Translations under genes and position numbers: made by a program | Shown: piece by piece, positions 11,083 through 27,961 of the stretch | How positions within the stretch are numbered: position 1 is the stretch's first letter | Layout of the letters: each line of letters starts with the position of its first letter | The notes under the pieces: model-generated | Databases searched by the model: none | What the model was told of the DNA's origin: nothing | The model's input: only the letters and a program-made list of their open reading frames with translations | IMG/VR virus record: IMGVR_UViG_3300040736_000076 | Coordinates: 1-50,155 of that record | Source: a virus | Taxonomy: Duplodnaviria > Caudoviricetes | DNA: 50,155 bases | Strand: one strand, 5' to 3'

Positions 11083-11088
11083 CATCGG
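11083..11088 (+). repeat. Target-site duplication CATCGG (left copy)
   Basis: Identical hexamer directly outside both TG...CA ends (second copy at 27956-27961). Confidence 0.9.
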
Positions 11089-11131
11089 TGATCAGAGATG
11101 ATATAAGTCAGGGACAAGATATGCAATAAGT
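11089..11131 (+). repeat. Left terminal inverted repeat with two ATGNNATAAST putative transposase-binding motifs
   Basis: TGATCAGAGATGATATAAGTCAGGGACAAGATATGCAATAAGT vs right-end reverse complement TGAAGCGCGATGTTATAACTCACCAGCGAAATATGCAATAACT. Confidence 0.85.
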
Positions 11132-11253
11132 GGGTTGCGGGAGAGAGCGGGAGTCTTCGTGATAGTGCGGGATTGTGGTCAATTTCAAGTGATGTTTGAT
11201 GACGATACGGATCTCGTTACATTTTGTTTTCTCCCCAATGGATTGTCTACCAA

Positions 11254-11697
11254 TCAGGTCGCGTGCAACTCGTAAGTCCGGCCTTTCTTCATCCGTTTGA
11301 TGACCCCAGATAATGAAGCAAAGTAGAGGATGTATGAGATGGTTTCTCGTTCGACGCCGGGACATACCTTATACAGATCGGTTTGCAGGATGCCGGGCGT
11401 TGCCTTGATGATCGGGATAAGCACAGCCAATCCGTTTTTGTAGGCAGGATCAGCCTGGACAAAATCGGAGTACTCCTTATTTACAAGCTCAAGCTCTCTT
11501 GACCACTTGCCGCCCTCTGTTTCGTTGGCCTGCCGCCAGCTCTCGGCGGCCTTCATGTATTCCACCCGTGCTCTGTCGGTATCACCGGCACGGACCGCCT
11601 GTCGCGCCCAGTCCAAATGCAGTAATCCATCACCTACTCGTCCACAACCCTGCAAATAGTCTCTATTATTCAGGTCTATTCTTTCAGAAATACCCAT
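11254..11697 (-). CDS. Hypothetical accessory protein, possible C-terminal winged helix
   Basis: ORF coupled to the upstream gene, ATG at 11697, ends ...GVIKRMKKGRTYEL. Confidence 0.6.
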   Translation of the reverse strand: MGISERIDLNNRDYLQGCGRVGDGLLHLDWARQAVRAGDTDRARVEYMKAAESWRQANETEGGKWSRELELVNKEYSDFVQADPAYKNGLAVLIPIIKATPGILQTDLYKVCPGVERETISYILYFASLSGVIKRMKKGRTYELHAT

Positions 11698-11698
11698 T

Positions 11699-12340
11699 TT
11701 ACTTAGCCCCCTGCTTCCAACCTGCAACCGCAAGATAAGTCTTTCTCAAATCATCATCGCTCAAATCTGAGATGGAATCGACTTGAAATCTATCATTCAA
11801 ATACTCGTCAAGTTTCTTCTCAAGGCCCATTTTTATGACATTTGTTTTAATATAAGCATATTGTCTCTTGCGCCAATCAGTGGTGAGTTTTTTAGGAGCG
11901 CTCTTTGCGCCTGTCAAGCGTCCGATCCATTGACGAAGATATTTCTCCACAACTGGAAACTTTTCAAGAGGTATCAAGCGATACTGGGTGACGCCGCCCT
12001 TGTTATTTGCGGCATTTTGAATTGCGGCATAGCTTTTTGGTTTCGTTTTCAGGGCTTTCTCAAGGTCTCCTATCTCTCTGACAAGGCTTCTGATGATAAC
12101 CGCCTGTTCTTCAGTGATAACCACATGTCCAGGCACTACCGTGACTTTTGGCCGATGTACAACCTTTTCAGCTGTGATGTTGTTAACCGTGCCATTGTCG
12201 CCTATGACAACGCCGTGACTATCTGAAACTGAAATGCTTGTCGATATTTCTTTCTTCTTGCTGGGCGAGGGCTTCTCTCCTGACACTGGTTTTACCAGCT
12301 TCAAAACGCTTTTCATTCTTTCTTTCGTATCGTCCGCCAT
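11699..12340 (-). CDS. Phage ORF6C-like domain protein, co-oriented with the repressor
   Basis: RBS AAGGAG; VTQYRLIPLEKF resembles the ORF6C signature. Confidence 0.55.
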   Translation of the reverse strand: MADDTKERMKSVLKLVKPVSGEKPSPSKKKEISTSISVSDSHGVVIGDNGTVNNITAEKVVHRPKVTVVPGHVVITEEQAVIIRSLVREIGDLEKALKTKPKSYAAIQNAANNKGGVTQYRLIPLEKFPVVEKYLRQWIGRLTGAKSAPKKLTTDWRKRQYAYIKTNVIKMGLEKKLDEYLNDRFQVDSISDLSDDDLRKTYLAVAGWKQGAK

Positions 12341-12352
12341 ATCCCTTTCTCC

Positions 12353-12778
12353 TTATGCCGCAAGCCTTACCAAACTTATCACCGTTGCCCTGTTGATTTT
12401 CCTGCTTTCCGGAGCTTCCTTCAAATGCCATTGACAGAGCAGCATCACCAGTTCCGCCTTCTTTTCCGGCGTCAGTGTCCCCTTTATTTCCTCCAAATAC
12501 TCCTCAACCGCCTGGATTGCCTCTTTCAGTAACTCCTCGTCAATGACCCCAGGTGCGGCTTTGGGCTCTTCACCTCGTTTCATGGGGCCTTCGCCCGTGA
12601 GAAGCCACTTGTGTTCAATCTGATATCGCTCGCAAACGAGGACAATAAAATCTGCGGGTGGAGTCCTACCTTTGAGGTACTGATTTACAGTAGTAGAGCT
12701 TTTGCCAAGCTTTGCAGCAAACTCCCTACCAGACACGGACCCCATGATTATTTTCAGCCTGTCCGCAAATGAGTTCAT
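12353..12778 (-). CDS. XRE-family HTH repressor (Mu c position)
   Basis: FADRLK...SGREFAAKLGKSSTTVNQYLKG..P and WLLTGEG motifs, divergent from the early operon. Confidence 0.88.
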   Translation of the reverse strand: MNSFADRLKIIMGSVSGREFAAKLGKSSTTVNQYLKGRTPPADFIVLVCERYQIEHKWLLTGEGPMKRGEEPKAAPGVIDEELLKEAIQAVEEYLEEIKGTLTPEKKAELVMLLCQWHLKEAPESRKINRATVISLVRLAA

Positions 12779-12784
12779 TTTTTG

Positions 12785-12813
12785 TTGACTCCGTTCTTAA
12801 TTGAGTTTATATT
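12785..12813 (+). promoter_or_regulatory. Sigma70-type early promoter (Pe-like)
   Basis: TTGACT-17 bp-TATATT upstream of the ner-like gene. Confidence 0.65.
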
Positions 12814-12915
12814 GTCCTCAAATGTTTACGAATCTAAACGTAAAGTGATAAAAATTTTTTGCTGACCTATCAGCCTGAGACGTCGCGGGAAACTTTCCCA
12901 GAAGCGAGGCAACCC

Positions 12916-13113
12916 ATGAAAAACTATGAAATCAGAAAGACCAGATCGCTTATGACTCTATATGGAATCACCAATCGTATGATTGCAGAGCAAGCCGGGG
13001 TCTCGGAAACATTCGTCTCCTACGTCATCAACGCAAAACGTAAAGGCAGCCGGGTGAAAAAAATCATTGAAGAAATGATCCGTGCAAAGAGCGGCGAACC
13101 CATTACAGCCTGA
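12916..13113 (+). CDS. Ner/Cro-like HTH regulator
   Basis: GITNRMIAEQAGVSETFVSYVI HTH, first early gene opposite the repressor. Confidence 0.8.
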   Translation: MKNYEIRKTRSLMTLYGITNRMIAEQAGVSETFVSYVINAKRKGSRVKKIIEEMIRAKSGEPITA

Positions 13114-13170
13114 TTGATTTTGCACTCTATCAAATATGGTTTGAGTTTAACAGAGCAAATGAGGGATGTC

Positions 13171-13608
13171 ATGGCGAATCGAAAAGCACATGTTGATAAG
13201 GGGTTATCTATGCAACCGGCGCTGTTTGACAACAACACGGCAGAGGGTGCCCTTGATATTGACCTGGGCTTCCGACAGTGCCTGTCCAGGTCGATGAGCG
13301 GCTGCGGCAAGGACCGCTATCAGATTGCGGCCGAGATGTCACGCCTGATGAAGGCAACGATCAGTAAAGAGATGTTGGACAAATACGCAGCAAGTGATCC
13401 GGCTAATGGAATGAAGGCCGCTGCTCTTACGGCGTTCTGTTTCGTAAGCGGCACTTTTGAGCCCTTCCGCTACCTGTTGGAGCCCCTCGACGCCGATGTG
13501 TTGCACCCGGAAGACAAGGACTTGGTCGAGCTGGCCCGGCTCACCGAACAACAGCGCAGCATCGAGCAGCGGATACTAATAATCCGCTCCAAACGCGGCA
13601 TCAAGTAG
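13171..13608 (+). CDS. Phage early regulatory protein (CII-like)
   Basis: DRYQIAAEMSRL...ISKEMLDKYAA motif common in Mu-like early operons. Confidence 0.6.
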   Translation: MANRKAHVDKGLSMQPALFDNNTAEGALDIDLGFRQCLSRSMSGCGKDRYQIAAEMSRLMKATISKEMLDKYAASDPANGMKAAALTAFCFVSGTFEPFRYLLEPLDADVLHPEDKDLVELARLTEQQRSIEQRILIIRSKRGIK

Positions 13609-13618
13609 GAGGCGCGTC

Positions 13619-13807
13619 ATGTTGATGGGATTTCCGATGATACCGTTTCGCCTGTGCGATTTCTGGGCGATTCACGAAGAGAAGATGGAGTGCGGTGTTT
13701 TACGAGTGTTCGGCGAACTTCCGGGAGGTTCTTCCGCCGTCGCGTATTTTCGACCGCAAGCTGTTCCGCGTGGCTCCTGGATAGCGGACAACCTTAAGGA
13801 GGTCTGA
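13619..13807 (+). CDS. Small hypothetical protein
   Basis: RBS AGGAGG, fills the operon gap. Confidence 0.45.
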   Translation: MLMGFPMIPFRLCDFWAIHEEKMECGVLRVFGELPGGSSAVAYFRPQAVPRGSWIADNLKEV

Positions 13808-13809
13808 TC

Positions 13810-14106
13810 GTGGCGACAACTTACAAACGGATTGAGGCGGTCCGGAAGACGACAGAGATTATTGAGTACCTGTCTGGGGTAAAGGACATAGTCACCGGGC
13901 CACAGATCGCTCAGGCGGTCGGCATGTCGGTGGGCACGGTCATGTGCCACCTGGCCACGCTGGAGGACGCAGGGTACGTGATGATGATCGGCGGAGGCTA
14001 TCGGCTCGGCATGAGGCTGGCCGTGCACTGGGCCAGGATCAGGAGCAACCTGGAGGCAGAGATCGCCCGGCGGCAGCGCGAGCTGGAATCCATAACGGTG
14101 AGGTAA
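13810..14106 (+). CDS. IclR-type HTH protein
   Basis: IEAVRKTTEIIEYL...QIAQAVGMSVGTVMCHLATLEDAGYV, RBS AAGGAGG. Confidence 0.8.
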   Translation: MATTYKRIEAVRKTTEIIEYLSGVKDIVTGPQIAQAVGMSVGTVMCHLATLEDAGYVMMIGGGYRLGMRLAVHWARIRSNLEAEIARRQRELESITVR

Positions 14107-14202
14107 GTGTTATGCCGAACAGAAAAAAAGGCGTCTGGCCTTACTAGCCGGGCACTTATAAATAGGTTGAAAGACAAATTCTCATGGATGATGGAGGCGA
14201 AA

Positions 14203-15114
14203 ATGTCGCGAAAACAAACTGAAATACCCGTGGAAACCCTTGCTGGTGAAGAGATTTACAAAACAGCGAGGGCGGCCGCCGATCGGGAGCTTGCCGAGAT
14301 GCGAGAAAAAATGAATTTGTCCAACGAACTTGGACTGATTGCAGGGCGTATACAGGCATACAAATCAATAGAACTCCTCTCGGAATACCTCGGATATAAA
14401 CAGCTGGCCAAGATCATAGACAACAAAGAATTCAAGAAAATTCCGGGCATTACAAGCATAGATGACTATCTCGAACAGCTCGGGATCGGTAGATCAACCG
14501 CCTATAACAATCTTAAAATTGCACGCACATTGACGGTTGAAGAAGTTAAATTGTTGGACAAAGTCGGTTTTACTCGCCGTGACCTCCTCGGCTATGCCTC
14601 CCTCCCGGACGAAGCCCGTATGGAAATACGCGACGGCAAGGTCATAAATCTTGAAAAAGCCGACCGGGAAGAGATTCGGAAGGTTATCGAGGACATCCTC
14701 TTGGAGAATAAGAAGGTAAAAGAAGATACAGATGCAGAAATAAGGGTTCGCGATAGGGAAATTGCATCAAAGCGGGAATTAATCAAAAAGCAGGAGAAAG
14801 AACTTGCCCTCTTCGAAAAACAGGCACTGGTCCGCGGGCTTACCCCTGACGAGGATGCGTTCGTTAAACGGATCGAAGCATACAAAATCATGGCGCAAGG
14901 TTCGTTGATTGCCATGGAGCCCGCTGAAATCAGGAACGAATTTCCCGACCTCTCCCCTCGCATGCGCGCCGCGCTCATCTCCAGCGCCCATTACCTGAAG
15001 ATGCAGATTCTAGCCCTCTACGACACCCTGGTTACAGAGGTGGGCGATCCCACCATGAACCCGGAACTTCTGGAGGATTATTCCCGATGGGCGGAGCAGA
15101 ACGGCTTTAAATAA
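14203..15114 (+). CDS. DUF3102-like phage protein (HTH plus coiled coil) preceding the transposase
   Basis: SIDDYLEQLGIGRSTAYNNLKIA HTH, typical position in B3-like transposable phages. Confidence 0.6.
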   Translation: MSRKQTEIPVETLAGEEIYKTARAAADRELAEMREKMNLSNELGLIAGRIQAYKSIELLSEYLGYKQLAKIIDNKEFKKIPGITSIDDYLEQLGIGRSTAYNNLKIARTLTVEEVKLLDKVGFTRRDLLGYASLPDEARMEIRDGKVINLEKADREEIRKVIEDILLENKKVKEDTDAEIRVRDREIASKRELIKKQEKELALFEKQALVRGLTPDEDAFVKRIEAYKIMAQGSLIAMEPAEIRNEFPDLSPRMRAALISSAHYLKMQILALYDTLVTEVGDPTMNPELLEDYSRWAEQNGFK

Positions 15115-15177
15115 GCAGGGGAGGCGGTTATATCCTCCCGGACGTGACGCGACGGAAACTTCACCAGAGAGGGAAGT

Positions 15178-16860
15178 ATGTGGCAACGGGATATGGTTTT
15201 TGACCTTAAAGAAGCGCAGCCCGGCGACCGGAGGGCAATCATCGACAAGTACTGCGGCCAATATGGTTACACCTACGGGCACATGATGCGGATAGCCAAG
15301 GAGTACGGCTTTAGCAGCGGACGCAAGTCACGTTGCGACAAGGGAACAAGTTCCATCAGCCCCGACCAGCTCGACGCGGTAGGGTCCTTTATGCGAGTCA
15401 CACGCCGTGAAAACAAAGGGGTCATCTCCCCGGTCGAAAACGCTCTGGTCTTTTTCGAGGATAACGGCCTGATTGCACCGGGCCAGGTATCGGTCCCCAC
15501 GCTACAGAGAAAACTCAGGGAGCGGCAAATGAGCGCCAAACATCAGAACAGCCCTACCCCGCACACCGAGATGCGCAGCCTTCATCCGAACCACGTTCAC
15601 AGCGTCGATGTATCAACCTGCATCCAGTATTACCTTGACAAAGGCGGCATGTCGGTAATCCGCGAGGATGAATTCTACAAGAACAAACTGGAGAATTTCA
15701 AAAAAATCAAGACGCCACTGCAACGCTACATCATCACCGATCATTTTTCCGGCTTCTTCTTTGTCAAATATTACCTCACGGACGGCGAGACCGCCGAGAA
15801 CCTGTTCGATTTCGTATGCAGCGCCTGGGAGGTGAAGCATGACAACCGCTTCCCTTTCCGGGGCGTGCCGCTGCTGATGCTTATGGACGGCGGTTCGCGG
15901 GCAAAAGCAAAGGCGCTCGGGCTCCCCTTCTGGGACGGCATCGGCGTTGACATCCTTCCAGGCATGGCGGGCAATTCCCGCCGTCAAGGCTCGGTAGAGG
16001 TAACCCATTGCATCTGGGAAGAATGGTTTGAAACCCGCCTCCGGATCGACCCGGCGACCTCTTTGGAGGACCTGAACCGAAAAGCCTTCGGTTTCTGCCT
16101 CTGGTACAACGCCACCAAAAAGCACACCCGCCACGGTTTCCCCCGCCTTTCCATGTGGCTCAACATCAATGCGGAACAATTACGTGAACTCCCCGCCAGG
16201 GCCGAACTCCAGGACCTGCTGAACAAACCGGAGGAAGAGCGCACCGTGGCCAACAACCGCATTTCCTTCCAGGGCAAGGAATTCAACCTGCGCGGCTTCG
16301 GTATCCCGGCAGGGGCAAAGGTAACGGTCATTAAGAACCTGTACAAGTGGCGCGAAGGTATCGTCATCATCGGGTACGAGAATAACCGGTACGAGGCGCG
16401 GGCTATCGACAAGTTGCCGGCCGAGTTGGGAGGGTTCTCCGTCAATGCGGCTATCATCGGCCAGGAATACAAGGCCCAGCCCGAGACCTTTACACAGCAG
16501 GCCGCAAAGCGGATGGACGAGCTTGCTTACGGCAGCCGGGAGCCCAACAGGAAGAAGGAAACCCCCTTCTATGGCATGAACGCCTTCGAGGGGTTCACGG
16601 AAAAGGTGGACAACCTTGCCACCCTGCCGAAACGTGGCACACCCATCGAGATCGCCCGCCCTGCCGCGCCGATGGAATACCCCGTCATGGAGCTGTTCAA
16701 GCGCATGAGAGAGGCCGGAATCGCTATCACCACGGAGATAAACCGGGAGCTGCGGGCCGAGTACCGGGGCACGGTCACGGCAGCGGATATAGAAGCGGTA
16801 ATCGGCCGATTTACGGGTAGTGAGGCAGGTGAAAACCAGCGGCAGGCGGCAGGCGGCTAA
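15178..16860 (+). CDS. Mu-like DDE transposase (gpA)
   Basis: RSLHPNHVHSVDVS, RYIITDHFSG, RGVPLLMLMDGGS and GSVEVTH motifs of B3-type transposases. Confidence 0.92.
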   Translation: MWQRDMVFDLKEAQPGDRRAIIDKYCGQYGYTYGHMMRIAKEYGFSSGRKSRCDKGTSSISPDQLDAVGSFMRVTRRENKGVISPVENALVFFEDNGLIAPGQVSVPTLQRKLRERQMSAKHQNSPTPHTEMRSLHPNHVHSVDVSTCIQYYLDKGGMSVIREDEFYKNKLENFKKIKTPLQRYIITDHFSGFFFVKYYLTDGETAENLFDFVCSAWEVKHDNRFPFRGVPLLMLMDGGSRAKAKALGLPFWDGIGVDILPGMAGNSRRQGSVEVTHCIWEEWFETRLRIDPATSLEDLNRKAFGFCLWYNATKKHTRHGFPRLSMWLNINAEQLRELPARAELQDLLNKPEEERTVANNRISFQGKEFNLRGFGIPAGAKVTVIKNLYKWREGIVIIGYENNRYEARAIDKLPAELGGFSVNAAIIGQEYKAQPETFTQQAAKRMDELAYGSREPNRKKETPFYGMNAFEGFTEKVDNLATLPKRGTPIEIARPAAPMEYPVMELFKRMREAGIAITTEINRELRAEYRGTVTAADIEAVIGRFTGSEAGENQRQAAGG

Positions 16861-16886
16861 CGGCTGAAAATCAATGGAGGTGTGAC

Positions 16887-18116
16887 GTGACGAACGGATC
16901 GAACGCGTACCGGTTGGAGGTGCGGCCGATCGTGCTGAAAGAGCTGATCGTGCGGTGCGACATCTTCCAGGGAAACCTTGCAACTCATCTTGGACTTGCC
17001 AGGACAACCATCAACCTAGTTATCAACAGAGGGTATCTACCGGCCACGGTTCCAGATTTCAAAAGCAAGGTCGAACAGTGGCTGATGCAACAACCCGGAG
17101 TGGAACAGTGGCTGATTCAGCAGGGGTTTCGAATAGGCGACATCTGGAGCCCGCTCGGCAGGCAGATGCACCGGGTGCACCCGAAGAGCAGCTATCAGAC
17201 GAAGAAAGACGGGGCAACGACCCCCGGAAACCCTGAGTCAATCACTATACAATGGGAGGTGGAGATGATTTCACAAGAGGCGATGCGATATTTCAAGTTG
17301 TTCCGCAACCCCTTCATCGACGATATCCAGAAGGATTCCGACATTTACATGAGCGACGAGCATCGCTTTATCAAAGAGGCCATGCTTGACGCCGCCCGGC
17401 ACGGCGGGTTCCTGGCTATTATCGGGGAGGTCGGCAGCGGTAAATCGGTGATGAGGCGCATGGTCGTCGAGCAGCTGAAGCGTGAGGGCGACATGCTGGT
17501 TATCTATCCCCAGACCATCGACAAAACCCGGCTCACCGCCGCGTCCATCTGCGACGCCATCATCTACGACATCAGCAGCGAAAAGGCCAAAATAAAATTA
17601 GAGGACAAATCACGCCAGGTGCAGCGGTTGCTGCTGGACCGCGCGAAATCCGGATACCGGGCCTGCCTGGTCATCGAGGAAGCTCACGACCTGAACGTGA
17701 AGACCCTCAAATTCTTGAAAAGGTTTTACGAGCTGGAAGACGGTTATCGGAAACTCCTCGGCATCATACTTGTCGGTCAGACCGAGTTGAAGCATCTGTT
17801 CAATGAAGCCCAAAATGTCGATATGCGCGAGGTGATACGTCGGGTCCAAGTAGCTGAGATCCAGGGGTTGAACGGGCATATGCGGGATTATCTTGCCACC
17901 AAGTTCAAACGCGTAGGCGCAAAGATAGAGGACATATTTTCCGAAGATTCGTTTGATGCCCTTTCACGCCGACTTACCAGCGCCAGTCGCGACGGGAAGG
18001 GGAATGTGTCCCACGCATACCCACTCCTAGTCAACAATTATGCCGCCAAAGCCATGAATCTTGCCTTTGAGATGGGGGAAACAAAGGTGAGCGAAGAAGT
18101 AATCATGGCCATTTAG
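16887..18116 (+). CDS. Transposition ATPase (MuB/ExeA-like AAA) with N-terminal HTH
   Basis: Walker A GEVGSGKS, Walker B LVIEEAH, GQTELK, YPLLVNN. Confidence 0.92.
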   Translation: MTNGSNAYRLEVRPIVLKELIVRCDIFQGNLATHLGLARTTINLVINRGYLPATVPDFKSKVEQWLMQQPGVEQWLIQQGFRIGDIWSPLGRQMHRVHPKSSYQTKKDGATTPGNPESITIQWEVEMISQEAMRYFKLFRNPFIDDIQKDSDIYMSDEHRFIKEAMLDAARHGGFLAIIGEVGSGKSVMRRMVVEQLKREGDMLVIYPQTIDKTRLTAASICDAIIYDISSEKAKIKLEDKSRQVQRLLLDRAKSGYRACLVIEEAHDLNVKTLKFLKRFYELEDGYRKLLGIILVGQTELKHLFNEAQNVDMREVIRRVQVAEIQGLNGHMRDYLATKFKRVGAKIEDIFSEDSFDALSRRLTSASRDGKGNVSHAYPLLVNNYAAKAMNLAFEMGETKVSEEVIMAI

Positions 18117-18174
18117 CGGGGAGACAAACACCAGAGAAAAGGGGCTGTGCGATGAACAAAGGAGCGCGTGAAAA

Positions 18175-18495
18175 ATGACCAATACCATATTACAGCAGCT
18201 TGAAGGGATAGAAAGACTGGAGGCGGTCAAGGCCCTTATTGCCGCGCTCCATACGCTAACCGAAGGGATGAAGGCCAAAGACCTGCCGGGGATCGTGCCG
18301 ATTGTGCAGCGGCTTGTTCCGATCAAAAAACGCAAGCATGACCCGTATGCCGAGGTATGGGCATATCTTGAAACAATCCCAGAGTACACCACCGGCAAGG
18401 AACTTAGAGCCGAACTTGTTGCCCGTTTTGGTGAAGAGGGGACGCCTTGTCTGTCGCATCTTTACAAATATCTGCGGACAAGGGGGAAACTATGA
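18175..18495 (+). CDS. Small HTH protein (paralogue of the next gene)
   Basis: YTTGKELRAELVARFGEEGTPCLSHLYKYL. Confidence 0.65.
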   Translation: MTNTILQQLEGIERLEAVKALIAALHTLTEGMKAKDLPGIVPIVQRLVPIKKRKHDPYAEVWAYLETIPEYTTGKELRAELVARFGEEGTPCLSHLYKYLRTRGKL

Positions 18496-18740
18496 TCCGC
18501 GACAAAATAAACCCGTTGCTTGTGCGCCGTCCCCGTGGAGGTATGTCCCGCGTAGAGCAGGATAAGGAGGTGTTCGACTTTATCAACGGGCTTGACCGCT
18601 ACCATACCATCAAGGAATTACGAGAGTTGATATCACGGCGCTTCGGGAAAGCAAGAACCCCGTCAAAAAGCAGCCTGGGACGGTTCCTGAGGAAAATTAC
18701 GAAAGAATACAGCTACGACAAAGGAGGAGAGAGGACATGA
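18492..18740 (+). CDS. Small HTH protein
   Basis: YHTIKELRELISRRFGKARTPSKSSLGRFL, ATGA overlap with the upstream gene. Confidence 0.65.
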   Translation: MIRDKINPLLVRRPRGGMSRVEQDKEVFDFINGLDRYHTIKELRELISRRFGKARTPSKSSLGRFLRKITKEYSYDKGGERT

Positions 18741-18949
18741 CCGCAAGCGAAGAAAATATAGCGCTCAATGAGCTGGAGGACTGCCTCAGCATCACCATGT
18801 TTCTGAATCTGGCATGCTGCGCCATGGCGGGGGAAATGCGCCATCTCCCTAAGAACAACCGTGAAACCGTCGGATTGCAGCACTGCTTTCACTATCTGCA
18901 AAGCAAGCTTGAAGGCGCTATTTCTACCCTTGAAGGGGGGAACGCATGA
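18737..18949 (+). CDS. Hypothetical protein
   Basis: RBS and ATGA coupling. Confidence 0.6.
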   Translation: MTASEENIALNELEDCLSITMFLNLACCAMAGEMRHLPKNNRETVGLQHCFHYLQSKLEGAISTLEGGNA

Positions 18950-19170
18950 CGGAAACAGATAAGAGAGAAATGGAATTACTGGAAAAGGACATAACCAATC
19001 GTCTTTTTGAGCTGGAAGCCCTTGCACAGGCAATGGAACTGCTCTTCAACGATTGCGACATCGATTACATGAAGAGTGAAAGGTTTGAGCCCGGCCTGCT
19101 GTTTGCCACGCAGAAGCGGCTTTACAATGACCTTCATACCCAGGTTCGGGAATTGATCGTCAAAAGGTAG
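18946..19170 (+). CDS. Hypothetical protein
   Basis: ATGA coupling, RBS. Confidence 0.6.
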   Translation: MTETDKREMELLEKDITNRLFELEALAQAMELLFNDCDIDYMKSERFEPGLLFATQKRLYNDLHTQVRELIVKR

Positions 19171-19188
19171 TTCTTGAGGAAAACCGAC

Positions 19189-19647
19189 ATGAAGACGGCT
19201 TCCATAACCAAAAATCAAATCAAGCTGGTGCACAGCCTGAAAAGCGCCCTTCAGCTCGATGATCCGACTTACCGGTCGATCCTTGACGAATGGTTCAAGG
19301 TGACTTCCTCGAAGGAACTTACCATGACCCAGGCTGAAGTGCTGATCCGTGAACTGAAAGACATAGCCGTGCGTGCCGGGGTATGGGAGCAGCGGCCCGC
19401 GCGTCAGAAGAAGTTTGACGAATGGGACGGCCGCCGGGGCAACATAGCCACGCCGCCGCAACTGAGAAAGATAGAGGCCATGTGGCAGGATGTGAGCCGG
19501 ATCGAGGAGCCGGAGTGCCGCAAGAAAGCCCTCCGGTCTTTCCTCGAACGGGTCGCCAAGGTTTCGGATCTCCGATTCCTGGATTTCGAGGGAGCGGGCA
19601 AGGTAATCAATGCCCTCAACTCGATGAGGAAGAGGAAGGCGGCCTGA
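19189..19647 (+). CDS. gemA: GemA/DUF1018 (Mu gp16-like) regulatory protein
   Basis: QIKLVH.LK..LQLDD.TYR.IL...SSKELT and QLRKIEAMW...ALRSF motifs. Confidence 0.85.
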   Translation: MKTASITKNQIKLVHSLKSALQLDDPTYRSILDEWFKVTSSKELTMTQAEVLIRELKDIAVRAGVWEQRPARQKKFDEWDGRRGNIATPPQLRKIEAMWQDVSRIEEPECRKKALRSFLERVAKVSDLRFLDFEGAGKVINALNSMRKRKAA

Positions 19648-19698
19648 CAGGGACGTCACACCAAGGCCCAGCAAAACAAACCATCGAAAGGAACGGAC

Positions 19699-20241
19699 AT
19701 GAGCGCTACTACCATGGATATCGAGGATAGCATCAAGTACTTCGACGCCGTAATAGGCTACGGCATGAAGATCACCAGTCTCTTAACGGCTGTATTTGCA
19801 CTTACCGAAAGCGAGGATGACTCCCTCAGGCATTACAACGAAGTGCAGACATTATTGGGGTTGTGTCTGGATTCGTCTAAGGAAGCGTCCATGCAGCACG
19901 ATGAATGCTATGGAGCCTTCAATAGCTTGCGATGGCGAATCATGAACAAACCGCAACCCGGCGACCAGATACCGGCGGAACTCGTTTCCGGGATCGTGCT
20001 ACATGCCATTGAGCCGACTGGAAACAAAGACTGGCAGTATCAGGCAACGGAAATCGGGAAGATGCTTCTCACTTACGCCGGGATTCACCAGGAACTTGCG
20101 CCTCTGGTAACCTCTTGGGTTAACTTCGTCCGGAAACATGGCGGTGACGCGCGGCTGCATCAACACAAGGACGGTACGCTTGAAGTGTGTTGGTACGGCT
20201 CTCTTGACGGTAGTGCACAAGCCAAGTCGGTCAACGGATAA
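19699..20241 (+). CDS. Hypothetical protein
   Basis: 180-aa ORF with RBS in the early operon. Confidence 0.6.
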   Translation: MSATTMDIEDSIKYFDAVIGYGMKITSLLTAVFALTESEDDSLRHYNEVQTLLGLCLDSSKEASMQHDECYGAFNSLRWRIMNKPQPGDQIPAELVSGIVLHAIEPTGNKDWQYQATEIGKMLLTYAGIHQELAPLVTSWVNFVRKHGGDARLHQHKDGTLEVCWYGSLDGSAQAKSVNG

Positions 20242-20266
20242 AAAGCTTTGCCCTGGAAGGCCGGAA

Positions 20267-20378
20267 CGCGAAATTTGCCCTGTGAGCCGCTTTTCTCGTC
20301 AAACAGTGTCCTACCTATGGGCCGGAAAGCGAAAAGCCGACACGCAAAAATTTAAAGATGGTTTTAATGCGGTTCCGG
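20267..20378 (+). promoter_or_regulatory. Central cis site homologous to the helper G-I intergenic region (candidate strong gyrase site)
   Basis: CGCGAAATTTGCCCTGT and AAAATTTAAAGATGGTTTWAATGCGGTTCCGG blocks shared with 48449-48559 at nearly the same spacing. Confidence 0.6.
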
Positions 20379-20435
20379 AGATGTGAAGTAACTGCCTGTT
20401 CGGGAAATTCAGGTCTGAAGCGTTTTGGAATGGAT

Positions 20436-20508
20436 TTGAGACTATGCGCAGCCGTCCCGACGCACGTCCTTTGCCCGACGGTTGAGGGGACGGCCCCGCC
20501 GGGCCAGC
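20436..20508 (-). ncRNA. Structured small RNA, copy of the element behind the helper MuF-toxin gene
   Basis: About 64/74 identity with 49199-49272, with one compensatory pair and G-U-preserving changes. Confidence 0.65.
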
Positions 20509-20520
20509 AAATAACTCCGA

Positions 20521-20601
20521 TAACGGCGGCGTGGAATCGAACCGCGCAACACGACGGCGCGCTGAAGCGCCCTCCGCTCTTCCTTTGAGACTTACGCCGT
20601 T
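20521..20601 (-). ncRNA. tRNA-like structure (non-canonical)
   Basis: 7-bp acceptor AACGGCG/CGCCGTT plus discriminator A, D-like CTC-AAAGGAA-GAG, GGCGC/GCGCC stem around TTCAGC, T-arm GGTTCGATTCC. Confidence 0.55.
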
Positions 20602-20619
20602 CTATTCAGAGACGGTTTT

Positions 20620-20648
20620 ACTATATCGAACACCGGCACGGAAGTAAA
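20620..20648 (-). promoter_or_regulatory. Sigma70 promoter driving the tRNA-like and small-RNA transcript
   Basis: TTTACT-17 bp-TATAGT, nearly the same hexamers as the helper promoter at 49160-49188. Confidence 0.65.
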
Positions 20649-20668
20649 GGACCCCGGAGAAAAACATC

Positions 20669-21331
20669 ATGCACCTTGCAGTCGCAACCACTGACATGGA
20701 CATTGAGACTTGGCTAGCCACGAACACAGCCTATTGCCTCCGCTATCAAGCCCGACTCTCAATGGCCGCCTGCGGGCAAAACCGGGGGCGATCCGGCGGC
20801 GATTGCCGTTGCGAAGGTTGCGGCGGGCTTTACGACCAGCCGCCGCCAGTTCTTGCATTAAGGCTGGTTTCCCCCGCCCGGTACGCAAACGAGAATGAAC
20901 CGGATAGGGCCATATTGCCGGTTGACGTTGAAGACCCACAGGGTGAGTTTCCAAACGCCGACCAAATTGAGGATGAAAGCGATACTCTTGCCTTGCTGGC
21001 TGATTTCGAGGTCGAGCTTGCCGAAGAACAGCTCGGAGACCTTTGTCCGGGGTTGTCAGGGGAAATCGGCGAACTGCTCGCTGAAGATACTGCCCAGATG
21101 GATGAAGAAGTCCTCTCGGAACGACGGGAAAAGAAACCTCGTCGCCGAAAAGTCGCCGTCTTCATGGGCCGCTGCCACAGGTGCAGCGGCTACATGGTGA
21201 ATGACAGAGAACGGCAGTTTGGTGAAACGGATGAAGAGCTTTACCGGTGCTTTTCATGTGGCTGGCGGATCTCGCCTATCTATGCCTTCAACCGGGCAAC
21301 TCCCGTCAAGGCACAGATAAAGGCGAAATGA
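20669..21331 (+). CDS. Cys-rich (Zn-binding) protein with acidic linker
   Basis: CxxC pairs CEGC, CHRC, CFSC. Confidence 0.7.
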   Translation: MHLAVATTDMDIETWLATNTAYCLRYQARLSMAACGQNRGRSGGDCRCEGCGGLYDQPPPVLALRLVSPARYANENEPDRAILPVDVEDPQGEFPNADQIEDESDTLALLADFEVELAEEQLGDLCPGLSGEIGELLAEDTAQMDEEVLSERREKKPRRRKVAVFMGRCHRCSGYMVNDRERQFGETDEELYRCFSCGWRISPIYAFNRATPVKAQIKAK

Positions 21332-21348
21332 TGATCAAGGGAGGGATT

Positions 21349-21693
21349 ATGAGCCGACGTGCGGGGAAGGGACTCTATCTGGAAGTGGCGAGGGTGATTG
21401 TCGAGACGCTGAAAGAGGCTGGTTTACAGCCTGCCGCCACGGTCAGACTGGCGACCGCCATCACCGCCTCAATATGCAGGAATTTTGCGGGCGCCTGCAT
21501 TTACTTTCCCCTCAACATCGCGGAGCAGCAAGCACGCAAGGCATCCGCGATAGTTGCCGAGTTCGACGGCCGGAATTACCGCGAACTGGCACTAAAACAT
21601 GACCTAACAGAAAATCAGGTCAGAAACCTGGTGAGGCGAGCAAATCCAGCCACTCTCAGGGATAACATCGGGACCTCTGGAGATGACGAATGA
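21349..21693 (+). CDS. Mor/C family transcription activator
   Basis: NFAGACIYFP...IVAEFDGRNYRELALKHDLTENQVRNLV. Confidence 0.88.
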   Translation: MSRRAGKGLYLEVARVIVETLKEAGLQPAATVRLATAITASICRNFAGACIYFPLNIAEQQARKASAIVAEFDGRNYRELALKHDLTENQVRNLVRRANPATLRDNIGTSGDDE

Positions 21694-22058
21694 AGTCCGC
21701 GAGCCTGGAGCAGGTCAATCAGATAGTCGGGCCTGATGCCTTTGCCTTACTCGAAGCCGTCTTCATGGGTTGCCAGCTCTATATTCCAACAGGGAAGGGC
21801 CGAGGGAAGTTTTACGATGACTTCGCGAAGGTCATCGGTTCAGAAAAAACCGCAACACTTATCACCCATCTTGGCGGCCGACTCGTGTATTTCAAGAAGC
21901 GCCAAACGGAACTTATCCGTGAGAAGCACGCCAGAATGGCTGCCGCCTACCACGGGGAGCCAATCAATGATTTTGCCAATGCAAACGGGGTCTCCAAAGT
22001 AACTGCCTACAAGATTCTGAAAAATGCCGGGATGACATGCCTGTCTTCCGGCTCGTAA
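21690..22058 (+). CDS. Mor/C-like regulator
   Basis: FMGCQLYIP and LGGRLVYF motifs plus a C-terminal HTH. Confidence 0.7.
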   Translation: MKSASLEQVNQIVGPDAFALLEAVFMGCQLYIPTGKGRGKFYDDFAKVIGSEKTATLITHLGGRLVYFKKRQTELIREKHARMAAAYHGEPINDFANANGVSKVTAYKILKNAGMTCLSSGS

Positions 22059-22101
22059 TGCTTATTCACTCTGGCTTGATACTGAGATACGAGGGGTAAA
22101 T

Positions 22102-25100
22102 ATGAGTACAGACAAGGTCCAAATCATCATTGAAGCAAAAGATAACGCATCGGCCGCGATCAAGGCTATCGAGTCGGCCTTCCAGGCCATGGGCATATCG
22201 GGCAAGATTGTAGCCAACAGCCTCGACAACTCTTTCTCCGCCCTCTCCGGCGCTTTCAAGACCCTCAATCTTCGGTCCGCGTTCGATATCGAAAAACAGA
22301 GAGCAAGCCTTATAGCTGCTTTTGAACAGATCAAAACTTCCGGAATTATTTCAGCCACGGAAATAAAACGGGCTCACCAGGCATTGAAAGAACAGCTCAC
22401 GGGCCTGGATAAGGAACTGAAAGGGACCGGCAACAGTTTCCTGTCGTTAAAGGGCGCGGTCGGCTCTGTGGGCGCATCACTTGCCGGCATGGGCTTCGTC
22501 GCGATGGGTAAGGAGTGTGTAGACGCCTCGCTAAAAATGACCAAGTTGAAAAGCACCTTGGAGGCCGTCTCCGGCGCTGATGCTGGTAAAGAGATCGATT
22601 TCCTGCGAACAGAGGTAAACCGCCTGGGCCTCGATCTGTCGAGCACGGCTGATTCATACGGCAAGTTCGCCGCCGCCACCAAGAATACCAGCATTGAGGG
22701 CGAAAAGGCCCGAAAGGTATTCGTCGGAGTGGCGGAAGCCGCTACTGCTCTTCATTTGTCAGCGGACGATACAAACGGCATTCTGCTCGCCCTCCAACAA
22801 ATGATGAGCAAGGGAAAAGTAAGCGCGGAGGAACTCAATCAGCAATTGGGAGAACGGCTTCCCGGCGCCTTGAAGCTCGCCGCCGACTCAATGGGAATCA
22901 CCACCTCAGAACTGATGAAACAGATGGGAAACGGCCAGGTCATGGCCGACGATCTGCTTCCCCGCCTTGCTGAAATGCTGCATCTGACCTATGGAGATGC
23001 AGCGGTGAAGGCCGCTCAGGAAGGGCAGGCCGCCATCAATCGGCTGAACAATGAAATACTGGAATCAAAGGCCCAGGTGGGGAAATCACTTCTTCCTGCG
23101 TATACCGCTGCATTGCAGGGCACAAGCACCCTTGCGCAAGGTGTCGCCGTCCTGGTTGAAAAGTACAGGCAATTGACGGCCGCCGCAGTCGGATATTACC
23201 ACGCCAAATATACCGTCACAGACGCCTCGCTCTCCCTGTCCGAACGCATTGCCAAGCTCAAGGAGATCAGGGACCGGGTAATCGAAATCTGGAAAGACAT
23301 AGATTCCGAAGGAGCCAAGAGCACCGGGAATATGGTCCAGGATGCCCTGAAGCGCGCCAACATCGCCATAGAGAGCGGAAAATCAGTTGCGAAGATTGAG
23401 ACGGACCTGACCAAAAAGACGAAAGAGGAATACGAAGAGAGAAAGGGCGCGATCGAGGGATACTGGTCAAAAGCCATGGCGCTGGTCGCGAAAGGGAGCG
23501 ATGAATACCGGCGAATGGAAGAAGGCAGGAAGCGGGAGCTGCTACAGCTTGAAGAACAGTATTCAAAAAAGTCCCTTGCGGCTCAACGTTCAGCCGAGGA
23601 GGGAAAGCTGAAGGATGCCGTTAAGTTCGCGAAGGCTTCAGGGGACCTGGACCGTCAGCTTGTGGCTGAGTATCAACAGAAATACGAAAAGAAGAAAGCG
23701 GCCATTGAAGACCATTACGCCGAGGAATTGAAAAGCACCCAGAAGGGCGCCGCCGCATACATTCTCCTGGAAAAAAATAAAAACGAGGCGCTCCAGGAGC
23801 TGGAAAGAAAACACAAGGAAGATTCGAAATTCATCGAGCTCGATAAGATCGAGATATCGCTGGAGAACAAAAAGAAAGAGACCAAGGGCCTAATCGACCT
23901 GATAAAGGAACAGGTCAATCAGGAAGCCATCACAGAGCAGGCCGGACGGACAAGAATCATAAATCTGGAACTCGAAGATGCAACGAAACTCTACGAAGTC
24001 AAAAAACAGCGCTTCGAGTTGGTTTCAGGCCTGTATGACAAGGAATCGGAAGAATATAAAACCGCCCTTGCTGCGATGAGCCAGGCACATGCGCTGTTTA
24101 CCAACAAGCAGACCGAACAGCGCAAACAGTCACACGAAAACGAGAAAATCAACCTCGAAAAATCCTCCCTCGATTACCAGCTCGAACTTAAAAAGCGCCT
24201 GGACTGGCTGAAGGACAGCGAGCGGGACGGGAGCATCACCCATCAGCAAGCCGCCCGCGACAAGCTGGAGGCTGAAAAGAATTACCTGGCGCAGGTGGCG
24301 GAACTCAGGCGGCGGGAACTGGCGGCCGCTCCGCCCGACACGGTGGAATACAAGCAGGCTCTGGCAGCGAAGTACCAGGCGGACAGGGAATACGCCGAAG
24401 CAAAACGGGCGCTGGACGACCAGATCAACGCCGAGAACATCGGCAGGTATGAAAGCGAGGCGGCGGAAGCCGAGAAGACCTCGAAAAAAGAGCAAGAATC
24501 GTTCCGCTCTTTTGCACAATGGTTTTACGCTCAATGGGACGCGATAACGAACAAGGTGGTCGCGCTCGGCCCGAAGGTGGCGGCGGCGTTCGGCGTATCG
24601 GTCAAACAGGCCGCGCTGGATACCGTGGAGGGGCTCCGTGCCAAACTGGAAGAGGTCGCGGCGGCGGTCCGCAAGGCGGACGAGGCGAGCCGGGACTGGT
24701 TCCAGTTCGGGAGGTTATTGGGCGAGCACGCCGAAAAGGCGGAGCAGCTCACCTACCGCTACTACTCCCAGCGCCTGGCCGTGGCCGAACTGACCGAACA
24801 GCTGAAAAAGATGGGGCTGGCCACCGACTGGCAGGTACAGCGCGCGAACAGCCTGATTAAGGAGATGGACCTCCTGAACGACTCGGACCTGGACGATGTC
24901 AGGAGCGAGGTGGACCGCCTCACGGAATCCCTGAAAGAAGCGCAAGAGCAGGCCGAGGACACGGTGGACAGCCTCCGCGACGAGCTGGACGAGATGTTGG
25001 GCAACAAGACCGCCATCGAGGAGCGCGATTACGAGGCAAAGAAGGACGAACTGCTCGCCAAGCTGGACGACGCCCGGAAGGCGGGAGACATGGCCATTAC

Positions 25101-25647
25101 ACAGGAATATCAGGAGGCGCTCACTCTCCTGGAGGAGATCCACAAGCGGAAGATGGCCAACATAAAGGAAGAGGCTGCCGCTGCCAAGGCCGCTAGGGAA
25201 GCGACTTCCGCTTCGACTTCATCTCCCCTTCCCGGCTTCGCCAGGGGTGGACAACTCCCAGGCGACAGCCCGGTCGATAGCATTCACGTAATGGCGCGAC
25301 CCGGAGAATGGTTTATCAACAATGAGGCTGTGAAGTTCTGGGATACGAAGATCGGACGAGGTTTCATGGCGGCAATCAATGAGCCATGGAGCAGGGCGGG
25401 CCATCAAATCCAGGAACGTCTTACAAGCGCCGGCAGTAATTTTTTCTCAGGTGTTATTCATCTTCCTGTACCAAAGAGCTCATTTGCCACGGGCGGGCAA
25501 GTTGCTGATGCTTTCAGAGCCTCGCCTGATAACGGCAGCCGCCCCATTCAGATTACGAACTATTTTTCGGTTCAGGAGTTAAATGAAAGGACCGTGCGCA
25601 GAGAGGTGATACCGGTTTTAGAGAAGTGTGCACGGTTGAAAAGATAA
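22102..25647 (+). CDS. Tail tape measure protein (1181 aa)
   Basis: ALQQMMSKGKVSAEELNQQLGERLPGA tape-measure domain, long coiled coil, GFARGG/RPGEW C-terminal motif. Confidence 0.92.
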   Translation: MSTDKVQIIIEAKDNASAAIKAIESAFQAMGISGKIVANSLDNSFSALSGAFKTLNLRSAFDIEKQRASLIAAFEQIKTSGIISATEIKRAHQALKEQLTGLDKELKGTGNSFLSLKGAVGSVGASLAGMGFVAMGKECVDASLKMTKLKSTLEAVSGADAGKEIDFLRTEVNRLGLDLSSTADSYGKFAAATKNTSIEGEKARKVFVGVAEAATALHLSADDTNGILLALQQMMSKGKVSAEELNQQLGERLPGALKLAADSMGITTSELMKQMGNGQVMADDLLPRLAEMLHLTYGDAAVKAAQEGQAAINRLNNEILESKAQVGKSLLPAYTAALQGTSTLAQGVAVLVEKYRQLTAAAVGYYHAKYTVTDASLSLSERIAKLKEIRDRVIEIWKDIDSEGAKSTGNMVQDALKRANIAIESGKSVAKIETDLTKKTKEEYEERKGAIEGYWSKAMALVAKGSDEYRRMEEGRKRELLQLEEQYSKKSLAAQRSAEEGKLKDAVKFAKASGDLDRQLVAEYQQKYEKKKAAIEDHYAEELKSTQKGAAAYILLEKNKNEALQELERKHKEDSKFIELDKIEISLENKKKETKGLIDLIKEQVNQEAITEQAGRTRIINLELEDATKLYEVKKQRFELVSGLYDKESEEYKTALAAMSQAHALFTNKQTEQRKQSHENEKINLEKSSLDYQLELKKRLDWLKDSERDGSITHQQAARDKLEAEKNYLAQVAELRRRELAAAPPDTVEYKQALAAKYQADREYAEAKRALDDQINAENIGRYESEAAEAEKTSKKEQESFRSFAQWFYAQWDAITNKVVALGPKVAAAFGVSVKQAALDTVEGLRAKLEEVAAAVRKADEASRDWFQFGRLLGEHAEKAEQLTYRYYSQRLAVAELTEQLKKMGLATDWQVQRANSLIKEMDLLNDSDLDDVRSEVDRLTESLKEAQEQAEDTVDSLRDELDEMLGNKTAIEERDYEAKKDELLAKLDDARKAGDMAITQEYQEALTLLEEIHKRKMANIKEEAAAAKAAREATSASTSSPLPGFARGGQLPGDSPVDSIHVMARPGEWFINNEAVKFWDTKIGRGFMAAINEPWSRAGHQIQERLTSAGSNFFSGVIHLPVPKSSFATGGQVADAFRASPDNGSRPIQITNYFSVQELNERTVRREVIPVLEKCARLKR

Positions 25648-25686
25648 AAAGGTTCAGCCCCGAAGTAACGGATAAGGAGGATATCG

Positions 25687-25896
25687 ATGAATATCTTTGA
25701 ACGGTTTGGAATGGCGGCCGGAAACAGGAAACTGAGCGACGTAGAACTCGATAGGTTTGCCGGAAACGTCTCAAGGATGATGATGGCACATCAAAAGACC
25801 GCGGAGACGTATATCAGATTTGCGGAATCTACCGAAAAGGCAACCGGAAACCGGGATAGCCCCTTGATACCCGCTGATTTGGCACGTCACGTATAG
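25687..25896 (+). CDS. Small hypothetical protein
   Basis: Strong RBS TAAGGAGG. Confidence 0.6.
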   Translation: MNIFERFGMAAGNRKLSDVELDRFAGNVSRMMMAHQKTAETYIRFAESTEKATGNRDSPLIPADLARHV

Positions 25897-25951
25897 AACC
25901 ATTAACCGCGCTGGATGACTACCCGGCAGCCAGCAAAAAGGAGACTCAAAA

Positions 25952-27055
25952 ATGGGAAAACAGACTGCAAAAAAGGTTGATATCGGTACCGAGGAACGAC
26001 TTGCCAAAAGGGACGAAGCACATTCGATGCTTGCCGATCTGCGCGGCACGATTGCCGACGCCTTCAAGGTGCATAAGGAAAAGCAACAGGCACTTGACGC
26101 AGCAGACAAAGCTTTGGAACTTTTTTGTAGAGAGGGCGGTATTGAACAGAAGAGGCGATGTCTCCGCGTAGACGCTTCAAGCCGCATTGACTTAAGTTTC
26201 ACTTTTTCAACGGATCACCTTGAGACTCAGGAAAAGGAAAGGTTCGAGCAACTCAAAACGAAGGTTGAAATCGCGGCGAAAGAGGCGGGGGAGGCCGAGG
26301 CCAGGCTTGAGGAGCTGCAAGAAGAAGAAAAAGCGATCATAGCCGAAGTGTTTGACCTGGACACCGCCGTTGAAGAAACCATTCTGTTCCGGACGAGGCT
26401 TTCCGATGCAGCCCAGAAAGTAACTCAGCTTCAGGAACAGATAGCCCTTCAGGAAGAGGTGTCCGATAAGACCCGTTCCGGGCTGCCGTCACTGGACAAG
26501 TTGAACCGGAAACGGGAAGACCTCCTCGCGGAGATCGCGACCGGGAACGCCACTGAATGTCAACTTTCAGAACTTGATACCCTGATCGAATCCGAAAAGA
26601 AAAGGGTCTCTGTCGCTCTGGAAGACGCTGAAACGACAATCGAGCATGCGCGGCAAACCATAGCCGGACTGAACCGTAAACTTACAGAGGCGGAAGATGA
26701 TTTGGCAACGCTGGAACTGAGGGATAAGGCAGTCATCTCCCGTTTCTTGAGAGTTGAAGCCGAAAAGGCCGGAAGCGATTACGCGCGGCTTGCCGGTGAG
26801 CTTGTCGGCAAGTTCAGGCGCCTGGTAGCCCTGGGCAGAATCATGTCCGCCAGAGGTTTTACCTCGATTGGAGAAGACAATCTTCATCAGTTTACAATCC
26901 CCCGCTTCATGCTTAACGCCCATGATCTACCGGGTGTTGAAGGGTGGTACTTCGACGGGGGCCCGGTATTGCAACACCTTCAGCGGAGAGGTATCAACGA
27001 GAATGATATGGCCGCCGAGACGGAGCGGATCGCCCGCATGGGGATCACTATCTGA
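25952..27055 (+). CDS. Coiled-coil hypothetical protein (367 aa)
   Basis: RBS AAGGAG, E/K/A/L-rich heptads. Confidence 0.75.
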   Translation: MGKQTAKKVDIGTEERLAKRDEAHSMLADLRGTIADAFKVHKEKQQALDAADKALELFCREGGIEQKRRCLRVDASSRIDLSFTFSTDHLETQEKERFEQLKTKVEIAAKEAGEAEARLEELQEEEKAIIAEVFDLDTAVEETILFRTRLSDAAQKVTQLQEQIALQEEVSDKTRSGLPSLDKLNRKREDLLAEIATGNATECQLSELDTLIESEKKRVSVALEDAETTIEHARQTIAGLNRKLTEAEDDLATLELRDKAVISRFLRVEAEKAGSDYARLAGELVGKFRRLVALGRIMSARGFTSIGEDNLHQFTIPRFMLNAHDLPGVEGWYFDGGPVLQHLQRRGINENDMAAETERIARMGITI

Positions 27056-27252
27056 TTTACCGTGGCATGTGCCTGGACAAGGCGGACCAGCAGGCGCATA
27101 CCCCGTTTCCGGCGTGAGCTGTCGCCGGGCCACCTCCTTTATGGGCTGCCAGGGGCTACCCTTGAGAGACCCCGGCCACGCGCCGCTAATCAAGGGAATA
27201 AAGGCCGGTTATGATGTCCATAATCGGCCTTTACACTATGGAGAGTCGGCAT

Positions 27253-27831
27253 ATGGGTAAATGCAATCAAACGAAACTTCCGGAGCGACGCGCCTCTTTT
27301 ACTGAAGTTCGGGCAAAGATGATCGTCGCCATTGGAGAAGAGTCGGCAGGTAAACTCATGAATACTTTTGCCGGTCAAATGCTGTATCTTTCGCCTTCCG
27401 GCGGTGGTAAGGATGCTGAGAAAATAATCAAGGTTATTGGTCTAGATGCGGCTGTGCGTCTCTTCTCTACTTGCGGCAACAATTATGTCTATTTTCCCAA
27501 ATGGAGCCATATCATAACCCGCGAATGGCACAAAGCCGTTGTGGATGCCTATGAAGGGCAGGATCTTTGTGAATACGCCCGCGATTGTGGTAGCAGCACG
27601 GTAACTCTCAGAAAAATACTGAAACGTCACGGCAAGAAACCGACATGTACGAAACGAGAAAGGAACCGGCAAGAGGTCAAAGCGCTTCTCTCTGAGCTGA
27701 CGGCAGCCTATCAAGGCGGACCGGTGAGGGCATTTGCGAAGGAAATGGGCGTCTCCTACACATACGCGAAAATGGCTGTTGCTTTAGCAAGGGGCGAGGA
27801 ACAGAAAGGAGATGTTGAGCGGGGATCGTGA
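27253..27831 (+). CDS. Mor/C-like regulator with duplicated HTH
   Basis: FAGQMLYL and GNNYVYFPK motifs, two AYxG-HTH units, paralogous to 21690-22058. Confidence 0.65.
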   Translation: MGKCNQTKLPERRASFTEVRAKMIVAIGEESAGKLMNTFAGQMLYLSPSGGGKDAEKIIKVIGLDAAVRLFSTCGNNYVYFPKWSHIITREWHKAVVDAYEGQDLCEYARDCGSSTVTLRKILKRHGKKPTCTKRERNRQEVKALLSELTAAYQGGPVRAFAKEMGVSYTYAKMAVALARGEEQKGDVERGS

Positions 27832-27912
27832 GGTGAAAAAGTTACCTGTAGGGTTTCCTGGAAAATTCAAAACCAAACAAAAATTGAACACGTCAAACGT
27901 TTTCTTGCGGCG

Positions 27913-27955
27913 AGTTATTGCATATTTCGCTGGTGAGTTATAACATCGCGCTTCA
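27913..27955 (-). repeat. Right terminal inverted repeat
   Basis: Ends ...GCGCTTCA, with two GAGTTATWRCAT motifs. Confidence 0.85.
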
Positions 27956-27961
27956 CATCGG
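27956..27961 (+). repeat. Target-site duplication CATCGG (right copy)
   Basis: Matches 11083-11088. Confidence 0.9.

Follow-up and report, generated by a model that had tools for sequence, protein, structure and literature searches.

From our analysis of a 50,155-nucleotide stretch of viral DNA (Duplodnaviria; Caudoviricetes; IMG/VR record IMGVR_UViG_3300040736_000076), referred to here as the window, we found a 16,867-bp element beside a Mu-like prophage which, judging from its sequence, is probably a member of a family of satellites that spread by transposition. We regard it as an intact mini-Mu that transposes autonomously by means of a switch, a transposase and an ATPase of its own, and likely as a satellite of full-size Mu-like phages. 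The element begins with TG at 11089, ends with CA at 27954-27955 and is flanked at both ends by CATCGG, a 6-bp target-site duplication (TSD), and its terminal inverted repeats match at 30 of 43 positions. These ends, already named in the original prediction from the letters alone, were confirmed: of the 98 TG..CA pairs around the region that have a 6-bp duplication, this pair scores highest (31/45, against 20/45 for the runner-up). PHROGs and Pfam scans of its 25 open reading frames (ORFs) identified a repressor, ner-like and cII-like regulators, a B3-type transposase (TnpA), a transposition ATPase (TnpB), GemA, three Mor proteins and one tape measure protein (TMP), which bears out the uninterrupted immunity and transposition module proposed earlier and assigns it to the B3 type. 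In the same scans no capsid, portal, terminase, tail tube, lysis, integrase or primase gene was found among the 25 ORFs. The TnpA is of the B3/BcepMu type (29-34% to B3/BcepMu-type phages), and with the DDE transposase A, the ATPase B, the TG..CA ends and the 6-bp TSD the element has the hallmarks of a transposable phage, from which it departs in head, packaging, tail and lysis genes and in the usual length of 36-39 kb. Scans for promoters and terminators gave chance-level results only.

The same reduced plan recurs at other loci. Relatives found by TnpA searches carry, after gemA, a cysteine-rich protein (o220) for which no family was found in Pfam or Atlas. An alignment of o220 matched 11 viral loci, 7 strong and 4 partial loci in 87 family genomes, 15 of 401 class genomes and 15 metagenome loci (of which 3 weak and 3 short ones were left unmapped), along with 66 clusters at E<=1e-30 among 50%-identity representatives; after removal of four duplicates, 32 distinct o220 loci remained, the window included. 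Their hosts are Geobacter-like bacteria, and the family plan is c-ner-cII-A-B-(gemA)-o220-Mor(s)-cargo-end, with a transposase A that is B3-type in some and 650-830 aa long in others, a few of the latter having been assigned to the Mu type. By tblastn with 12 reference terminase, portal, lysin, tube, gp36/gp37 and helper-type capsid proteins, none of the 32 loci had a match within -10/+7.3 kb (roughly one contig in three stops short of these limits), and none of 189 ORFs scanned from o220 loci was named terminase, portal, lysin or tube by PHROGs. Both ends and a TSD were located in seven loci, namely the window element (16,867 bp), L098 (14,736 bp), L096 (14,592 bp), G002 (14,538 bp), G253 (14,408 bp), G247 (12,912 bp) and G161 (11,171 bp), where the end pairs of G002 and G253 score just 20-21/45 and their calls rest on end signatures and position. 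The expectation that homologues of this architecture would be found elsewhere with TSDs of their own is therefore supported. The alignment of G002 with L098 starts at the first base of both and runs at 67-80% identity, and the two occupy separate sites and differ in cargo. Between G180 and L080, colinearity extends over some 12 kb. L004 has 94-95% identity to the left half of the window element with a different flank. Among full-length relatives the nearest TnpA stands at 83% and the DNA match is confined to A-B, so the single recent deletion from a close full-length parent that was feared as an explanation did not turn up. A generic TSD scan on the TnpA loci gave nothing above chance because the flanks are too short.

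The features of the window are as follows (coordinates, strand, feature).

11083..11088, no strand: left copy of the 6-bp TSD
11089..11131, plus: left end, TG, terminal inverted repeat (30/43)
11254..11733, minus: o159, ORF without family match; homologues at the left end of relatives (L004 92%, L055 79%, L058 76%)
11699..12340, minus: phrog_17822 protein, weak anti-repressor match
12353..12778, minus: c-type repressor
12859..13608, plus: ner-like repressor and cII-like regulator (phrog_2345)
13810..15114, plus: small helix-turn-helix (HTH) protein and phrog_4623 protein, 5' of TnpA
15178..16860, plus: TnpA, 560 aa, intact B3/BcepMu-type DDE transposase; ratio of nonsynonymous to synonymous rates (dN/dS) 0.18 against L004
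16887..18116, plus: TnpB-type AAA+ transposition ATPase; dN/dS 0.04 against L004
18175..19170, plus: four early small ORFs
19174..19647, plus: GemA (Pfam scan)
19699..20241, plus: o180, partial homologues in 8 other elements
20256..20385, plus: central G-I-type site, 55% along the element, function putative
20436..20512, plus: structured RNA-like motif, predicted kissing hairpins
20669..21331, plus: o220, two Cys clusters and an acidic linker, family marker; no Pfam or Atlas family
21247..22058, plus: two Mor/C-family late activators
22102..25647, plus: TMP, 1181 aa, intact
25687..25896, plus: o69, strong ribosome-binding site (RBS), predicted scaffold mimic
25952..27055, plus: CC, 367-aa long helical hairpin
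27211..27831, plus: third Mor-family protein
27913..27955, minus: right end, CA, terminal inverted repeat
27956..27961, no strand: right copy of the 6-bp TSD
28015..28090, plus: host tRNA-Thr, 60 bp beyond the right end of the element
28220..50155, minus: right half of the Mu-like siphovirus-type prophage (candidate helper)

The neighbouring prophage has its right end at window position 28220, past the tRNA-Thr, and its left end outside the record; record G001 holds the same DNA with 19 kb more, including a portal, both terminases, a lysin, Mor, GemA and a 739-aa Mu-type transposase. The element and this neighbour have in common the TMP (75% at the DNA level over 1255 bp), the G-I site (20267-20378 in the element, 48559-48449 in the neighbour) and the RNA (20436-20512 and 49272-49195, respectively), with the order reversed, being site then RNA in the element and RNA, gpG, site in the neighbour. 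These three items could be taken to mean that the element is a functionless prophage, recently decayed from the neighbour or a close relative, which we consider very improbable. The element is not a deletion of the neighbour, because its TnpA differs in type from that of the neighbour, and neither its TnpA nor its TnpB has a match in the neighbour prophage region of G001. Moreover, the element has a coding fraction of 0.907 (about 91%) with no broken gene seen, has its own ends and TSD, and follows a plan found at 31 other loci, and the complete relatives at other sites contradict decay.

Further observations on the neighbour concern other parts of its sequence. At window 49195-50048, MuF is fused to a PBECR2 nuclease domain with the structured RNA directly after it. 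A 35-40-bp palindromic repeat occurs in four copies in the neighbour (window 48401-48600 and 37750-37790; L046:6352-6395) and in none in the element. The capsid ORF (window 45416-46534) has a hydrophobic N-terminal leader and a strong RBS, likewise in L156, and a DXD glycosyltransferase gene (window 29361-30200) ends the tail operon beside a Dam-type methylase.

New with respect to the original prediction is a 69-aa ORF with a scaffold tail (o69), situated just before the family coiled-coil gene CC. The C-terminus of o69 (IPADLARHV) is identical at 8 of 9 residues to that of the neighbour gpI protease/scaffold (IPADLAKHV). This pair ranks top of 792 element-helper C-terminal pairs (the next reaches 5/9), and of 3962 ORF tails none besides exceeds 4/9. 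The gpI tail is conserved in all 15 helper-type gpI proteins read, with a variable linker before it. In most members without a capsid gene, the slot before CC holds either a protease domain or a short ORF with one of three scaffold-tail classes (assigned by eye; the classes were defined from 19 full-length gpI proteins), PHROG matches to the gpI C-terminus occur in four family members, and in G259 gpI and CC are fused. The predicted role of o69 is that of a scaffold mimic, which recalls CpmB of SaPI1, a short protein whose C-terminus mimics the coat-binding tail of the helper scaffold (PMC5644958). The likeness is one of plan and implies no sequence relation, and coat binding is predicted. Because of this ORF, the earlier statements that exactly three things are shared with the neighbour and that no virion remnants are visible were wrong, the o69 tail being a fourth shared item; the sharing of the TMP, site and RNA and the absence of capsid, portal, terminase, tail tube and lysis genes themselves stand.

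CC is present in 20 of 32 family loci and is predicted to fold as a long helical hairpin (predicted local distance difference test, pLDDT, 80). The single lead to a counterpart among P4 Sid and Psu points to the Psu family, through Atlas language-model features (0.90, 182 shared features). Comparison with single P4 Sid and Psu sequences gave hhalign probabilities <1%, Psu is not among the families listed for 24 members, and a PDB sequence search and four fold searches returned generic coiled coils only, so that a Psu-like identity comes from language-model features only and is unsupported by alignment or fold searches. Against 301 phylum-wide genomes the CC alignment matched in the centre genome only, and a search with mor3 found the same element only. 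A 70%-identical CC protein occurs in P0002, a 58-kb contig, possibly in a sister element beside a prophage.

Cargo varies among the 32 loci, with CC in 20, TMP in 14 (one weak), an IS630-like transposase in 14, capsid in 7, a gpI protease domain in 7 and a hub in 3, and some loci carry gpG, MuF or chaperone genes. The capsid-encoding subgroup (G003, G015, G051, L015, L077, L078 and L079) encodes the capsid part of the full-length fusion but not its protease half, and has no central site. The IS630-like transposase (L137:11831-13420 and 13 other loci) is the last gene in 14 elements and absent from the window element; its D-D-E residues are intact, it has an extra N-terminal HTH, its dN/dS is about 0.08-0.11, and it looks domesticated. 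One family member (L080:2600-13800) occupies the interval between the B and gam genes of another Mu-like prophage; its left end and TSD were not found.

By iterated profile, the central site was detected in 22 of the 32 loci, where it precedes o220, as well as in three full-length prophages, and is absent from all seven capsid-bearing members. It lies at 49-60% of the length in six complete elements and at about 51% in the neighbour. The strong gyrase site (SGS) of Mu, to which we liken it, is located close to G and I and is most effective in a central position (PMC10052514), and by this analogy the central site may be a counterpart of the SGS; alternatively, it may be a late promoter. The structured RNA is found in 5 of 15 helper-type loci, those in which MuF closely matches the neighbour PBECR2 extension, and is absent in the other ten. 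This MuF-linked RNA does not characterize the family, since among the family elements it occurs in none other than that of the window. No Rfam family was found for it and minimum free energy z-scores were not significant; a kissing-hairpin model gave 92% pairing with two covarying pairs (26/500 shuffles), which with five sequences is weak. An antitoxin or decoy role for this RNA is speculation.

The TMP of the element is, along its length, 68% identical to that of the full-length phage L182, against 48% for that of the neighbour, and the L182 capsid is 95% like the neighbour capsid. The neighbour is accordingly ruled out as the TMP donor, as L182 is closer. Because the TMP is closer to L182, which belongs to the same capsid group, the sharing is with the neighbour's phage group and not with this prophage copy. 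Co-resident full-length prophages match the cargo in G003 (capsid 73%), G051 (capsid 75%, TMP 56%) and L080 (protease 51%). The test of selection proposed in the original prediction points to purifying selection on the cargo, with dN/dS of 0.147 for the TMP against L182, 0.09-0.25 for element capsid proteins, 0.16-0.39 for o220 and 0.26 for the protease, many synonymous rates being saturated in these comparisons.

These values bear on the possibility of a passive natural mini-Mu, that is, a deleted prophage that remains able to transpose and that any compatible helper packages without being manipulated, its virion genes being leftovers. The transposases of the family are polyphyletic and near those of full-length phages, and laboratory mini-Mus with a repressor, A, B and ends do replicate (PMC10052514), as this explanation would have it. 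Nevertheless, we consider it improbable, as the o220-Mor-CC module is common to the family and not seen in full-length phages, the 69-aa ORF retains the scaffold tail alone behind its own RBS, the element gene order is unobtainable by deletion from the neighbour or L182, and purifying selection is indicated.

Several observations weigh against the element being a satellite of Mu-like phages. A Mu portal was found in 3 of the 15 element genomes, two of these matches being weak, as against 33 of 386 others (p=0.14), and Mu TerS in 1 of 15 as against 36 of 386 (p=1); the B3-type prophages present in G003 and G051 escape these two Pfam helper markers, because of which the test of helper co-residence undercounts. 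The cargo is unmatched in the portal-bearing regions of G141, G283 and G408. No terminase redirect was found in the element, and no packaging signal common to the element and the available part of the neighbour left arm, whose left end is off the record. In 7 of 18 located cases the right end lies 60-428 bp from a tRNA (nine tRNAs across all regions), on the tRNA 3' side in six (G253, G161, G180, G283, G086 and L079) and on the 5' side for the window element, so the adjacency of element and neighbour may reflect a shared hotspot. For 11 of the 18 right ends no convincing left end and TSD were found. The B3-type TnpA of nine elements are scattered among 20 loci without o220 (6 label changes, at least 5 of them forced, with four short loci unlabelled in the tree), which may reflect module swapping or repeated origin by independent reduction. 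The dN/dS of distant pairs partly reflects selection before reduction. The Mu-type A gene of G161 is split in two ORFs, yet both ends and the TSD are intact.

Some of these points suit an anti-phage transposon, which would spread inside a genome and from one genome to another by transposition and ordinary gene transfer and use its TMP, scaffold mimic and RNA as dominant-negative decoys against Mu-like assembly, without preferential packaging. Most element genomes are without a Mu-type helper marker, neither a terminase redirect nor a common packaging signal was seen, and the cargo is variable and lone. Conversely, the capsid gene is complete in seven relatives, several of which have TMP and chaperone besides, and this is beyond the needs of a decoy, and near-identical copies at different sites together with the kept central site suit a replicating, transferred element. 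We therefore find this explanation unlikely, though better placed than a passive mini-Mu; the anti-phage and satellite roles are mutually compatible and not exclusive.

Under the satellite explanation, we would expect a helper from the neighbour's phage group. The stronger claim that the neighbour itself was the donor or specific helper was not upheld, considering the closer TMP of another phage, the lack of enrichment of helper markers and the possibility of tRNA-proximal insertion; that this very prophage can serve as helper is an evenly balanced question.

PICIs integrate, excise and replicate as circles, and PICIs and capsid-forming PICIs (cf-PICIs) carry a site-specific integrase with a primase or replicase. 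Unlike these, the element has no integrase or primase, and the integrase and alpha primase of P4-like satellites (P4 record) are likewise missing from it. The seven capsid-encoding relatives recall cf-PICIs, though without portal or terminase. PLE11 of Vibrio cholerae has genes of its own for a TMP, a tail chaperone and a baseplate hub, and assembles chimeric tails (PMC12987554). In the present family TMP (14 loci), hub (3) and chaperone-like genes are PLE-like, and in the window element the TMP alone; unlike PLE, the element has no integrase or PLE-type replication gene, and its helper would be a temperate transposable phage. With B3/BcepMu-type phages and laboratory mini-Mu the element has in common TnpA, TnpB, GemA, Mor, TG..CA ends and the 6-bp TSD, which B3 also makes (PMC8705779). 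It differs from the former in being 16.9 kb instead of 36-39 kb long (PMC8705779), in lacking head, portal, terminase, tube and lysis genes and in having o220, o69 and CC, and from the latter in being natural and conserved. A phage satellite is defined as an entity other than a phage whose encoded mechanisms or signals promote its packaging in particles of phage origin (PMC11389934); candidates for such mechanisms in the element are the TMP, the predicted scaffold-tail mimic and CC. In its predicted hijacking the element is PLE/SaPI-like and in its movement B3/Mu-like, with neither the integrase that marks P4, PICI and PLE nor the virion genes that mark a transposable phage. In its available part, a 2024 review lists P4-like, PICI, cf-PICI, PLE, PICMI, VEIME and Tycheposon satellites, none described as Mu-type (PMC11389934), and we found no Mu-type or transposing satellite in the literature searched, which was covered at the level of listings with most subscription journals outside the coverage.

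In the mechanism that we propose, induction or helper infection would relieve repression, and A and B would replicate the element in place, with the central site helping. The Mor proteins would then activate the short late operon, and o69, with CC as its likely partner, would compete with the helper scaffold for coat protein, such that heads are shrunk or diverted as with SaPI CpmB. The element TMP would join helper tails, as in PLE. In Mu-type headful packaging the phage terminase packages from the chromosome, and in this manner the helper terminase would package the element with host DNA attached. In the broadest form of this proposal, for which we see about an even chance, such elements would form a satellite class that never excises, uses Mu-type replicative transposition, swaps transposase modules with full-size phages, and combines an o220-Mor-scaffold mimic-CC module with helper-matched TMP, capsid or hub so that Mu-like helpers yield small heads and chimeric tails.

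The satellite claim is testable because a complete member, L052, sits in the genome of a named isolate, Geomonas silvestris Red330. The family may also serve as an example of how prophages give rise to satellites, and short Mu-like elements so far classed as defective prophages merit re-examination. Should packaging occur, the elements would parasitize transposable phages by a distinct life cycle and would ferry host flanking DNA between Geobacter-type cells, and the scaffold mimicry known from SaPI and the tape-measure substitution known from PLE would prove to have arisen again.

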